DNA of 4,038 nucleotides from a virus (taxonomy: Duplodnaviria > Heunggongvirae > Uroviricota > Caudoviricetes). Under the pieces are notes generated by a model, which saw only the letters and a list, made by a program, of their open reading frames with translations, searched no databases and was not told the DNA's origin. Made by a program: the position numbers and the translations under genes. Positions 1,442-4,038 of the stretch are shown here, in pieces (within the stretch, counting starts at the first letter, position 1; each line of letters begins with the position of its first letter). The stretch is from IMG/VR virus record IMGVR_UViG_2703719368_000026. The stretch is one strand, 5' to 3'.

Positions 1442-1720
1442 TCAGTTTTTGCCAGATAAGTAACGCCACGGGCAGGGGATCCCCTGCCGTTCGTATGAAC
1501 GGCGCAAAATCGTGTTGTCGAAGTTGGCTCCATTTCCCCAGACCTGAACAAAAAATTCACCGGAGTTTTCGTCGATAAATTCCCGCAATTGTAACAGTGC
1601 ATCATCTAACGGGATTTCATCGGTCATAATGGCAGATTGCGCTTCGCGTGATTGCTTAAGCCACCATTTAATGGTGTCCCTCGCCGTGTGCTTTCGTGTT
1701 GTGTGCCTGCTTTTTACCAC
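1442..1720 (-). CDS. Hypothetical protein in the leftward operon; possible remnant of a larger gene
   Basis: 92-codon ORF beginning with GTG at 1720; first in-frame ATG is at 1627, and no convincing RBS was seen for either. Contains GNGANFD, which weakly resembles the exo II motif (HNAxFD) of DEDD-type 3'-5' exonucleases, but the ORF is too short for a complete domain. An 18-bp perfect palindrome (1471-1488) lies in its 3' end. Coding status uncertain. Confidence 0.35.
   Translation of the reverse strand: MVKSRHTTRKHTARDTIKWWLKQSREAQSAIMTDEIPLDDALLQLREFIDENSGEFFVQVWGNGANFDNTILRRSYERQGIPCPWRYLSGKN
1471..1488. repeat. 18-bp perfect GC-rich palindrome GGCAGGGGATCCCCTGCC
   Basis: Read directly; centred on GGATCC. 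Lies in the 3' end of the 1442..1720 ORF (encodes QGIPCPW). No U-tract on either strand. Confidence 0.7.
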
Positions 1721-1744
1721 GTCAGGCGAGGTGGTCCCCGTTAT

Positions 1745-1790
1745 TCCCCAACAACAAGGATCTTGTTAATCTGGATATCCCCAACAACAA
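1745..1790. repeat. Two exact 13-bp direct repeats TCCCCAACAACAA (1745-1757 and 1778-1790) upstream of the cargo ORF
   Basis: Read directly: the repeats are 33 bp apart start-to-start. The second abuts the AAGAG Shine-Dalgarno, and the first bracket-repeat copy lies between them. Confidence 0.7.
1763..1780. repeat. Left copy of bracket repeat TTGTTAA-TCTGGATATCC (13-bp inverted repeat partner plus TTGTTAA direct repeat)
   Basis: AATCTGGATATCC (1768-1780) is the exact reverse complement of GGATATCCAGATT (2335-2347). TTGTTAA (1763-1769) is repeated directly at 2346-2352. The core GGATATCC is itself palindromic. Confidence 0.7.
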
Positions 1791-1804
1791 TAAGAGTATT
1801 GAAT

Positions 1805-2320
1805 GTGATCGCTGAATTAACGGCAGCAATGACGGCTATTCGTGAAACCGCCCAGATTGCAAAACTAATGAACGAGGCAAAAACTCAAGCTGAAGTAAAT
1901 GCGGCTATTGGTGAACTGAACTCAAAGCTTGCATCTATTCAGCGCGAATGCGTGTCTCTCGTTGAGCTGGTGGGCACTTATCAAGAAATAAATGCTTCTC
2001 TCAAAGCTAAAATTGCAGAATTTGAAAACTTTGAGGCTCAGACGGAAGGTTATATCCTTAGCCAACTTGAGTCGGGAACTTTTGTGTACTCGAAGGAGGT
2101 AACCGTGAACGGCGGCAGCATAATCATGCATCTTTGTCCAAAATGTTTTGGACAAAAGATAGTATCGATACTTCAGCCATTCCCGGTTAGAGAATATGAA
2201 TTTTTTCATAAAAGCAGGTGCCTGTACTGTAAAAATCAGTTTCTTATGAATAAAAATCCGGATTACGTATCACCTCCATCTATTGAAGAGTTGGCCAGAA
2301 AACTGAACGGCAATCTGTAG
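1805..2320 (+). CDS. Uncharacterised coiled-coil / C4 zinc-ribbon protein (candidate moron or exclusion/defence cargo gene)
   Basis: Long plus-strand ORF convergent with the leftward operon. Most plausible start is GTG 1805 with AAGAG (1792-1796) 8 nt upstream; alternative ATG at 1829. The TTG-initiated extension back to 1652 is rejected. The N-terminal ~100 residues are Ala/Glu/Lys/Gln-rich amphipathic helix; the C-terminus has CPKC-(24 aa)-CLYC. Looks AT-rich by eye relative to flanks, especially the 3' half (not computed). Stop TAG at 2318-2320. Confidence 0.65.
   Translation: MIAELTAAMTAIRETAQIAKLMNEAKTQAEVNAAIGELNSKLASIQRECVSLVELVGTYQEINASLKAKIAEFENFEAQTEGYILSQLESGTFVYSKEVTVNGGSIIMHLCPKCFGQKIVSILQPFPVREYEFFHKSRCLYCKNQFLMNKNPDYVSPPSIEELARKLNGNL
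2133..2156. repeat. Palindrome TTTGTCCAAAA-TG-TTTTGGACAAA inside the cargo ORF (11-bp arms, 2-nt spacer)
   Basis: Read directly. It encodes the LCPKCFGQ zinc-knuckle residues of the 1805..2320 protein. Confidence 0.7.
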
Positions 2321-2902: not shown

Positions 2903-3379
2903 TTAAGTTCCTGTCTTGGTGATGTTCTGGCTTTTCCGTTTTGATTCTTGATTTTTCAGATAGTTAGCTACCTTCATTTCCATTGCGGCAATGTAGGCAC
3001 GAACGTCATGATCAACCCAACTAGGCTCCGTAGCATTTCCAGATAAGAGGAAAGCCACAATTGCTCTTTTTTCATCAGAGGCGGCTTGATAAAGGCTGTT
3101 TATGTCTAAAAGTTCACTTTTTGTATCTGAAGTGGATGGGGTTGGTATGGGGTATTCGTTAAGCCCCCAATGCTCTGGACCAACCACATCAGAAAAGAAA
3201 CGCCATAGTTCTGGAAGTTTGTCTTTACTTATCGAACCTTTCTTAATCCAGTCATGGATTGATGGTGGTTGGACTTTGAAATGACGTGCGATTTCCGCCT
3301 TTGATTTGACGGCTCCTGATGCAATTTTTTTGTTAATGGCCTGCTCTATCGCTCGGCCTAAGTCTTTACCACTAAGCAT
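2903..3379 (-). CDS. racR: Prophage repressor, RacR-like (Cro/CI-type HTH, no S24 peptidase domain)
   Basis: 158-aa ORF, the same length as E. coli K-12 RacR as I recall it. HTH segment SKAEIARHFKVQPPSIHDWIKKGSI. ATG at 3379 has an AGGAGA Shine-Dalgarno about 10 nt upstream (plus-strand CTCCT 3391-3395). Divergent from ydaS with operator repeats between them. Stop TAA at 2903-2905. Confidence 0.85.
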   Translation of the reverse strand: MLSGKDLGRAIEQAINKKIASGAVKSKAEIARHFKVQPPSIHDWIKKGSISKDKLPELWRFFSDVVGPEHWGLNEYPIPTPSTSDTKSELLDINSLYQAASDEKRAIVAFLLSGNATEPSWVDHDVRAYIAAMEMKVANYLKNQESKRKSQNITKTGT

Positions 3380-3503: not shown

Positions 3504-3827
3504 ATGAAAAAAGATAACTATTCATTCAAACGAGCTTGTGCTGTTGTCGGTGGGCAATCAGCAATGGCTAGGCTTTTAGGTGTATCTCCTCCAAGCGTAA
3601 ATCAATGGATCAAAGGTGTACGTCAGTTGCCTGCTGAGAGATGTCCTGCGATTGAACGAGCAACAAAAGGTGGTGTCCTGTGTGAAGAACTTCGTCCTGA
3701 TGTTGATTGGACATACTTACGACGCTCGTCATGTTATTCGCAGAATATGTCGATGAAGCAACCAAATGACGAAAACGATCATACCCGAAGCATCAAGAGG
3801 CAAATGATTCATGAAAATCAAACATGA
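3504..3827 (+). CDS. ydaS: Cro-like HTH regulator, YdaS family
   Basis: ATG at 3504 with GGAG (3492-3495) 8 nt upstream; the ORF track's GTG at 3483 gives a less likely 7-codon extension. HTH GGQSAMARLLGVSPPSVNQWIKG is typical of YdaS/Cro-like proteins. Transcribed divergently from racR, and its 3' end overlaps the ydaT start by 17 nt. Confidence 0.85.
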   Translation: MKKDNYSFKRACAVVGGQSAMARLLGVSPPSVNQWIKGVRQLPAERCPAIERATKGGVLCEELRPDVDWTYLRRSSCYSQNMSMKQPNDENDHTRSIKRQMIHENQT

Positions 3828-4038
3828 GCACATCCGCATGGCGATGAATGCCTGGGCATATCCTGATGGTGAGAAAGTTCCTGCAGCTGAAATAGCCCGG
3901 ACTTATTTCGAACTGGGGATGACGTTCCCGGAACTGTACGACGACAGCCATCCGGAAGCCCTGGCTCGTAATACCCAGAAAATTTTCCGTTGGCTGGATA
4001 AAGACACCCCTGATGCTGTTGAAAAAATGCAGGCTCTG
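3811..4038 (+). CDS. ydaT: YdaT-like protein (cII-position gene of Rac-type prophages), 5' partial; continues beyond window
   Basis: ATG at 3811 opens a frame running to the window end with no stop: MKIKHEHIRMAMNAWAYPDGEKVPAAEIARTYFELGMTFPELYDDSHPEALARNTQKIFRWLDKDTPDAVEKMQAL. This matches my recollection of the Rac YdaT N-terminus. Not in the supplied ORF track because it has no stop in the window. Confidence 0.8.
   Translation, partial: MKIKHEHIRMAMNAWAYPDGEKVPAAEIARTYFELGMTFPELYDDSHPEALARNTQKIFRWLDKDTPDAVEKMQAL

Follow-up and report, generated by a model that had tools for sequence, protein, structure and literature searches.

The window analysed here is a 4,038-nucleotide (nt) stretch of viral DNA (class Caudoviricetes; IMG/VR record IMGVR_UViG_2703719368_000026), and our subject is a plus-strand open reading frame (ORF) at positions 1805 to 2320, which encodes 171 amino acids (aa) between a GTG start and a TAG stop, together with the leader in front of it. 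Matches to the window at 100% identity occur in E. coli O157:H7 chromosomes, and in strain ERL04-3476 the matching region adjoins potC. According to the ORF list of the window and family searches, the ORF is preceded by minus-strand genes for an integrase (1 to 1119), an excisionase (1088 to 1366), and an exonuclease remnant (1442 to 1720); it is followed by a DUF1391 gene (2435 to 2665) and racR (2903 to 3379), also on the minus strand, and by a ydaS-like gene on the plus strand (3504 to 3827). The annotation of ERL04-3476 gives the order as integrase, excisionase, 3'-5' exonuclease pseudogene, 171-aa hypothetical protein WP_054428263.1, DUF1391, racR, helix-turn-helix protein, and YdaT-family protein. 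In the Rac prophage of E. coli K-12, the corresponding order is kilR (-), sieB (+), ydaF/DUF1391 (-), ydaG, and racR (-), and in the window it is exonuclease remnant (-), ORF (+), DUF1391 (-), and racR (-). The ORF therefore holds exactly the position of sieB, and an earlier reading of this DNA made from the letters alone (the original prediction), which placed the ORF in the sieB slot of a Rac-type prophage, was right about the gene order.

The ORF is a real gene; a chance frame is excluded by its substitution pattern, by its occurrence in genomes, and by its profile matches. The coordinates given for it by the original prediction, about 171 codons at 1805 to 2320, were confirmed, the listed frame running from 1652 to 2320, and RefSeq carries the identical 171-aa coding sequence in E. 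coli O157 genomes as the hypothetical protein named above. The gene is present in 653 of 5,426 complete E. coli genomes (about 12%), among them the O157:H7 and O55:H7 lineage, and the frame is intact at ≥80% coverage in 646 E. coli genomes. The ratio of nonsynonymous to synonymous substitution rates (dN/dS) against homologues is 0.16 to 0.24, indicating purifying selection. A profile search returned 3,333 cluster representatives at E ≤ 1e-3 and 1,799 at E ≤ 1e-10, nearly all of them 145 to 180 aa long. Two start codons had been offered, GTG 1805 with the Shine-Dalgarno (SD) sequence AAGAG 8 nt upstream (1792 to 1796, plus strand) and ATG 1829. Homologues from eight genera (Escherichia, Salmonella, Citrobacter, Klebsiella, Lelliottia, Edwardsiella, and Arsenophonus among them) have GTG or ATG as the start codon at the aligned position (M-I-A-E-L...), and the position of the SD sequence is kept in homologous leaders. 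Of 32 homologues, only 22 have Met at residue 9, the residue encoded by ATG 1829, and that codon has no SD sequence. Given the aligned starts and the inconstant Met9, GTG 1805 is therefore the start, and ATG 1829 can be set aside.

The original prediction had called the product an orphan that could not be placed in a characterized family. This does not hold, since sequence, profile, and fold all point to Rip1 (ring interacting pore 1). No family in Pfam, NCBIfam, or PADLOC scored above threshold for the ORF, and its sole Pfam matches were weak, sub-threshold coiled-coil ones. The PHROGs search put the ORF in phrog_1244 (function unknown) with an E value of 8.5e-58, and the same PHROG also takes HK446 Rip1 (2.2e-53), HK630 HkaP (7.9e-51), and JBD30 gp30 (2.7e-61). 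The remote-homology and structure searches that the original prediction had suggested both led to PDB entry 9OOX, the title of which describes HK446 Rip1 in complex with the T6 small terminase, and the Rip1 chain of which is 100% identical to HK446 gp37. With phmmer against PDB sequences, residues 14 to 150 of the ORF product matched chain residues 28 to 159 at an E value of 3.6e-7. A profile of 32 homologues matched 9OOX at an E value of 6.1e-24 (87.8 bits; positions 6 to 152 against residues 16 to 160 of 164) with both CxxC pairs aligned, and BLASTP gave 27% identity to HK446 Rip1 at an E value of 3e-13. An AlphaFold2 (AF2) model built with the 32-sequence alignment had a predicted local distance difference test score of 90.8, and its only significant Foldseek matches in the PDB were 9oox_M and 9oox_L (E = 5.7e-7, probability 1.00), with a target-normalized template modeling score of 0.73 and a root mean square deviation of 3.5 over 120 columns. 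On these sequence, profile, and fold comparisons, the ORF product belongs to the Rip1 family.

The Rip1 family was described by Patel et al. (Nature 2026), whose findings we take from a review (PMC13434031). As related there, Rip1 is a prophage protein, nontoxic alone, whose trigger is a ring of phage portal or small terminase; 12 Rip1 monomers ring an 11-mer small terminase, the pore is formed via an N-terminal amphipathic helix, the C-terminal half makes the contact with the ring, and the outcome is premature lysis. The same review describes Rip1 homologues as common across Proteobacteria and mostly prophage borne, reports a shared mechanism for Pseudomonas and E. coli members, and places the original Rip1 between the small and large terminase genes of Pseudomonas aeruginosa Mu-like prophages.

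The predicted architecture of the ORF product follows this plan. In the AF2 model, residues 1 to 79 (1805 to 2041, plus strand) form helices at 2 to 24 and 28 to 79, which by homology would be the pore-forming part, and residues 84 to 150 (2054 to 2254, plus strand) form a beta domain with the Cys pairs that would be the ring-binding half. The original prediction had described an amphipathic helical N terminus; the helices stand, and the amphipathicity is modest, with a maximum hydrophobic moment of 0.44 that is matched by 5% of shuffled sequences. Its two Cys pairs, CPKC-24 aa-CLYC, are borne out by the alignment: C111 and C114 (2135 to 2146) and C139 and C142 (2219 to 2230), all on the plus strand, are invariant in the 32 homologues, and together with Y83, V94, Y95, and I122 they are invariant in eight diverse members that include HK446 Rip1 and JBD30 gp30. 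The Cys pairs may bind a metal ion (Zn). As had been stated, the protein has no transmembrane segment, the highest 19-residue Kyte-Doolittle mean being 1.13. Nor is it a SieB, another point on which the original prediction was correct: the ORF gave no match to PF14163, and a true SieB encoded behind the same type of leader scored 3.2e-25 to that family.

Two CxxC pairs, long helices, and sub-threshold coiled-coil matches in Pfam could also describe a coiled-coil zinc-ribbon regulator, such as an anti-repressor, a DksA/TraR-like protein, or another nucleic acid binder, with no part in pore-forming defence. The original prediction had named an anti-repressor or DksA/TraR assignment as evidence that would tell against a cargo role, and at E ≤ 1 neither Pfam, NCBIfam, nor PDB returned such a match. 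Searches of Pfam, NCBIfam, and PADLOC yielded no family above threshold, the sole significant sequence and fold match is a Rip1 in complex with a small terminase, and the position and orientation of the gene are those of lysogen-expressed morons rather than of early regulatory operons. We consider a regulator very improbable. The guess that the gene is defence cargo was essentially right, its closest characterized relatives being prophage defence proteins.

A second alternative is that the protein acts against phages by exclusion, or on the host as a modulator, in some way other than that of Rip1, for example through SieB-like membrane effects without ring sensing or through a role in O157 fitness. 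The low identity to HK446 Rip1, a C-terminal tail of about 20 residues (151 to 171) that HK446 Rip1 lacks, and the location in a sieB-type cassette would fit this explanation. It accounts poorly for homology and fold that extend over the full length, both halves, and both Cys pairs, and family members from Pseudomonas and E. coli are reported, in the review cited above, to act by the same mechanism. We judge it quite improbable.

The neighbourhood census of homologues suggested with the original prediction was run on the window/O157 locus plus nine further phage or prophage contexts; all settings were phage or prophage, and in every case the gene was opposed to both of its neighbours. HK446 Rip1, on the opposite strand, separates N from a ral-like anti-restriction gene and cIII, and HkaP lies between cIII and N, also on the opposite strand. 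The homologue in PhiR49_1 (93% aa identity) adjoins cI; those in Citrobacter, Klebsiella, and Lelliottia lie between early-left genes or xis and the repressor; and those in Edwardsiella and Salmonella lie between recE and N and beside cro, respectively. The homologues in Arsenophonus and in Pseudomonas Mu-like phages are found beside terminase genes. In JBD30, gp30 is on the opposite strand between gp29, annotated as a “DNA binding protein,” and the large terminase, and from its position gp29 is presumably the small terminase.

HK446 Rip1 (gp37, 9OOX) thus resembles the ORF in full-length homology, predicted fold, both CxxC pairs, membership in phrog_1244, a lambdoid slot on the opposite strand, and, as described below, a leader with a core and two repeats. 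It differs in sequence (27% identity) and in a 10-residue N-terminal extension that the ORF lacks, and the ORF has its own C-terminal tail. HkaP of HK620, HK630, and HK629, annotated as “unknown,” is likewise a Rip1-family protein in phrog_1244, lies in the same kind of opposite-strand position, and has an identical leader type, although it shares only 29% identity with the ORF. The P. aeruginosa Mu-like homologues (JBD30 gp30, DMS3, and D3112 orf25) are about 30% identical to the ORF over about 150 residues, belong to the same PHROG, and are likewise single prophage genes on the opposite strand; unlike the ORF, they lie in the late (terminase) region instead of the early-left region and have no sieB-type leader or sas-like element upstream.

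The leader ties the gene to sieB. Over roughly 105 nt ahead of the start codon, the DNA sequence itself is conserved, including between homologues with only about 27% protein identity, and upstream this conservation ends abruptly. A BLAST search with the leader matched phage P22, where the match adjoins the annotated sieB promoter (29690 to 29720) and the sieB RNA start (29727). Window and P22 are 62% identical over 113 columns, with 28 of 31 positions identical in a conserved 31-nt core (1705 to 1735) that lies upstream of the promoter. A -10-like hexamer, TAATCT (1767 to 1772, plus strand), aligns with the -10 element TAAACT of the P22 sieB promoter, relatives having TATAAT or TAAAAT. Two direct repeats of TCCCCAACAACAA follow the core on the plus strand. 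The first (1745 to 1757) overlaps the -35 region, and its minus-strand complement falls in the arm and loop of a sas-like hairpin. The second (1778 to 1790) lies at the mRNA 5' end, which homology with the mapped P22 sieB RNA start places at about 1777 to 1779. The repeat type varies among relatives, CCCCAACAACAA in the ORF leader and ACCCCTACAG in the HK446 Rip1 leader, and the two repeats of a leader vary together: at least 10 of 11 positions are identical in 54 of 58 distinct leaders, among which there are at least five repeat types. We interpret this co-variation as a sign that the antisense copy of repeat 1 in the sas hairpin is kept complementary to the mRNA 5' end, that is, to repeat 2. 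By sequence comparison, the locus is a cargo swap within a conserved expression module: the sieB regulatory cassette, missed by the original prediction, has been retained, and its gene is a different one.

P22 SieB/sas and the sieB loci of Rac and lambda share with the ORF both the slot and a homologous promoter, repeats, and antisense region. SieB is lysogen-expressed abortive-infection cargo, and the same may apply to the ORF. The SieB protein itself is unrelated to the ORF product, which has no SieB Pfam domain and no transmembrane segments.

Translation of sieB in P22 is switched by the antisense RNA sas (Ranade and Poteete 1993, as cited in PMC12197685), and the published small-RNA reads of P22 sas, once reverse-complemented, coincide exactly with the part of the P22 leader that takes in the start codon, both repeats, and the core (PMC13397905). 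With ends taken from those reads, we predict a sas-like antisense RNA at 1700 to 1809 on the minus strand of the window, complementary to the start codon, SD sequence, and 5' untranslated region (UTR) of the ORF. For the 36 nt beside the core, the sas sense has a lower minimum free energy than the plus sense in 55 of 56 two-repeat leaders (mean, -9.05 versus -4.97 kcal/mol) and also folds better in 26 of 29 one-hairpin leaders; the z score against shuffles is about -2.2. In an alignment of 37 sequences, 90.6% of cells are paired, compared with 33 to 43% with slid partners, and in this hairpin 6 of 10 pairs have changes on both sides. These comparisons support a hairpin on the antisense strand.

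For the core, aligned with P22 sas, a 3' pseudoknot is suggested. The core contains interleaved complementarity (GCCTG at 1705 to 1709 with CAGGC at 1723 to 1727, and ACCAC at 1716 to 1720 with GTGGT at 1731 to 1735), and on the minus strand it reads ACCAC-N3-GCCUG-N2-GUGGU-A-rich 6-7 nt-CAGGC, the layout of an H-type pseudoknot with an A-rich third loop. Compensatory variants occur in K-12 Rac (GCCCGG/CCGGGC) and in one further locus (L292; GCCGGG/CCCGGC); a core change in L290 gives a G.U pair on the minus strand only. The other core helix is ACCGC/GCGGU in Edwardsiella, and L009 also carries a compensatory variant. The locus search based on SieB returned mostly close relatives of P22, and there are accordingly few independent core variants.

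Another explanation of the conserved 105 nt is that they are a DNA-level promoter and boundary shared through lambdoid recombination, with no functional antisense RNA acting on the Rip1-like gene here. The mapped P22 sieB promoter does fall in the region, the Arsenophonus homologue keeps promoter-like features without most of the core, and some SieB loci (L291 and L293) are without parts of the core. The whole 111-nt sas-like RNA folds no better than shuffles (z = -0.51), and neither a consensus scan nor inspection by eye of the 5' end of the ORF found a dedicated minus-strand promoter for the antisense RNA. A promoter or boundary of this kind does not readily account for P22 sas reads that span exactly this element (PMC13397905), for stems that vary in a compensatory way, for better folding of the minus strand in 81 of 85 leaders, for covariation above slid controls with G.U pairs on the minus strand only, or for a 31-nt core that lies ahead of the promoter and is preserved with at least 33 different cargo families. 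We regard the DNA-only explanation as doubtful, though with a real chance of being correct.

If the antisense RNA is made, then in view of the missing minus-strand promoter it would be processed from a leftward transcript. A candidate early-left promoter, the sigma-70-like site TTGACA-17-TATAGT (11 of 12 consensus positions), was found by the consensus scan at 2766 to 2794 on the minus strand, and a transcript from it would cross the ORF and the sas-like region in the antisense direction. The site sits between racR and the DUF1391 gene. A search of Rfam (E ≤ 10) returned no family over 1700 to 1810. No Esc-like internal product is evident, and the internal Met9 is only partly conserved.

Three other assignments for the leader or its RNA were tried and rejected. 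The leader is not a plus-strand 5' UTR riboregulator or pseudoknot: the core is upstream of the mapped P22 sieB start, and the minus strand folds better. The C/A-rich repeats were also considered as marks of an AgvB/AsxR-type anti-small RNA (anti-sRNA) or of a GcvB target; membership was rejected, as those sRNAs occupy the PR' moron site and differ in their conserved 3' part. In K-12 Rac (L260, positions 3906 to 4003 and 4060 to 4175), the annotated sRNA KilS lies on the minus strand between kilR and sieB; it does not overlap the sas-like core, which is about 65 nt nearer sieB.

Taking these lines together, we propose, at a probability of roughly 70%, that the ORF is a lysogen-expressed Rip1-type abortive-infection pore protein carried in a sieB-type cassette and subject to sas-like antisense silencing. 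We infer its expression, antiphage activity, trigger, pore formation, and antisense switch by analogy with the characterized systems. In the lysogen, the weak sieB-type promoter would produce a short-leader mRNA, and the Rip1-like protein would accumulate without harming the cell by itself. Once a ring-shaped late protein, either small terminase or portal, has been assembled by a superinfecting phage, the Cys-rich C-terminal domain would dock around the ring; the N-terminal helices of an approximately 12-mer would then form a membrane pore, and the cell would die or lyse ahead of progeny maturation, an abortive infection. If instead lytic growth begins in the resident prophage, or in a phage that shares its cassette, leftward early transcription would yield RNA antisense to the ORF; its structured sas-like segment may survive processing and pair with the 5' UTR, SD sequence, and start codon, stopping further synthesis of the Rip1-like protein. 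Such a shut-off would protect the phage against the defence that it carries, the part that sas plays toward SieB in P22. This antisense half of the mechanism is modelled on P22, and by that analogy the gene is probably silenced at the prophage's own lytic turn.

Several observations weigh against this proposal. Identity to the characterized HK446 Rip1 is just 27%, and trigger specificity and activity could therefore differ; the N-terminal hydrophobic moment is not clearly above that of shuffled sequences. The pseudoknot draws its support from few events, with its GCCUG/CAGGC helix fixed by the search pattern in most sequences (the loci found through proteins are independent of that pattern), and the full-length antisense RNA lacks a significant fold. 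At the DNA level, the -10 hexamer TAATCT is weaker than those of relatives, a consensus scan found no sigma-70 promoter upstream of the ORF and no intrinsic terminator downstream, and where PhiR49_1, Citrobacter, Klebsiella, Salmonella, and Lelliottia have a hairpin with a run of T residues behind the cassette, the window has a replacement. The left arm of the host prophage is truncated, with the exonuclease pseudogene adjoining xis, and self-immunity may therefore be moot in the O157 prophage.

The truncated arm, the pseudogene, the weak -10 hexamer, the empty consensus scan, and the replaced terminator would all be expected of a Rip1 homologue by descent that has lost expression and activity and persists, silent or decaying, as a remnant in a defective prophage. 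A decaying gene is hard to reconcile with a frame that is intact in 646 E. coli genomes and under purifying selection, or with the intact state of the four Cys residues and the leader elements. The P22 sieB promoter is likewise weak by consensus, yet its RNA start has been mapped. We think a remnant unlikely and retain the proposal of a lysogen-expressed Rip1-type gene.

The cassette extends well beyond this locus. With the first 24 nt of the leader (window positions 1705 to 1728) as the search pattern, at least 120 viral contigs were matched (loci L139 to L258), and a Rip1-family ORF lay downstream in 13 among the matches listed. Downstream ORFs that reached 55 aa numbered 102 and fell into at least 33 families, including SieB (PF14163) and the Rip1 family; the rest are of unknown function. 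One viral contig (L195) encodes, about 101 nt after the core, a very divergent 136-aa coiled-coil protein with CxxC pairs that matches phrog_1244 at an E value of 2.9e-22; since this match stands behind the same leader, several Rip1 sublineages use the cassette. A scan of genome contigs with a single peptide pattern gave 14 loci. Literature searches for a generalized sas or sieB cassette found nothing.

Tentatively, and at somewhat less than an even chance, we postulate that enterobacterial lambdoid prophages possess, in the sieB-type cassette, a portable module for “defence with self-immunity.” Its parts would be a weak promoter, two repeats that co-vary, and an antisense RNA with a conserved pseudoknot at its end; any abortive-infection cargo placed in it would be expressed in the lysogen and silenced in the lytic phase by the antisense RNA, itself a processing product of the early-left transcript, and Rip1 genes, including that of HK446, would be so regulated. 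A comparable layout has been described in Listeria, where the TERi locus of the comK prophage has a conserved promoter opposite the early lytic operon, alternating defence cargo, and self-immunity at induction (bioRxiv 10.1101/2025.02.27.640495). TERi and the sieB-type cassette are alike in this promoter and alternating-cargo layout; their sequences and hosts are unrelated, and TERi self-immunity is provided by proteins, not by antisense RNA.

If the postulate is correct, the 30 or more unannotated cargo families are a catalogue of candidate antiphage genes, and the sas-like RNA is an undescribed RNA family that is absent from Rfam. The cassette is a cheap sequence handle for further prophage cargo; only SieB and Rip1 among the at least 33 families have known roles. 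About 12% of complete E. coli genomes carry the gene studied here as “hypothetical,” and assignment to Rip1 supplies a testable function, that of a ring-sensing abortive-infection pore, and likely triggers (small terminase or portal rings). For lambdoid Rip1 genes in the sieB cassette, the antisense RNA is a candidate answer to the question of how a prophage survives its own ring sensor on induction.

Other cargo found behind the core includes small CxxC...CxxC proteins, small membrane proteins, and members of phrog_5286, phrog_3311, phrog_6315, phrog_8894, and phrog_3983. The distance from core to start codon falls into classes of about 63 to 72 nt (one hairpin) and about 99 to 106 nt (two repeats), with a few cases of about 148 or 196 nt. 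Trabulsiella odontotermitis (L022) appears to have two Rip1-like genes, one behind a canonical core (MLAEFTA...) and one behind a different upstream region. In an Edwardsiella prophage (L010), a gene with a GmrSD_N domain, a known defence type, lies at 9105 to 10785 between N and the repressor, a few kilobases from the Rip1-like gene, and several defence cargos cluster in the early region of this prophage.

Immediately after the stop codon, at 2322 to 2365 on the minus strand, lies an inverted partial copy of the promoter and RNA-start region (1758 to 1792). A 13-nt segment, AATCTGGATATCC, is identical at 2335 to 2347, and positions 1769 to 1780 and 2335 to 2346 form a 12-nt inverted repeat. 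This copy could be an antisense promoter or a protein site. It is conserved after the stop codon in the enterobacterial homologues (GGATATCCAGATTGTTAAAGAGC) and is not found in HK446. Cassette homology with relatives ends at about 2363, and a GC-rich hairpin without a T-run, GCCGGA-N12-TCCGGC, occupies 2360 to 2383.

On the other side of the cassette, the Rv2179c-like 3'-5' exonuclease gene is a pseudogene in ERL04-3476 already, and a further 136 bp of that pseudogene are missing from the window, at 1458/1459 within the minus-strand remnant (1442 to 1720). All 20 of the listed E. coli matches span 4,174 bp in two aligned pieces, which suggests that the 136 bp are present in those genomes too.

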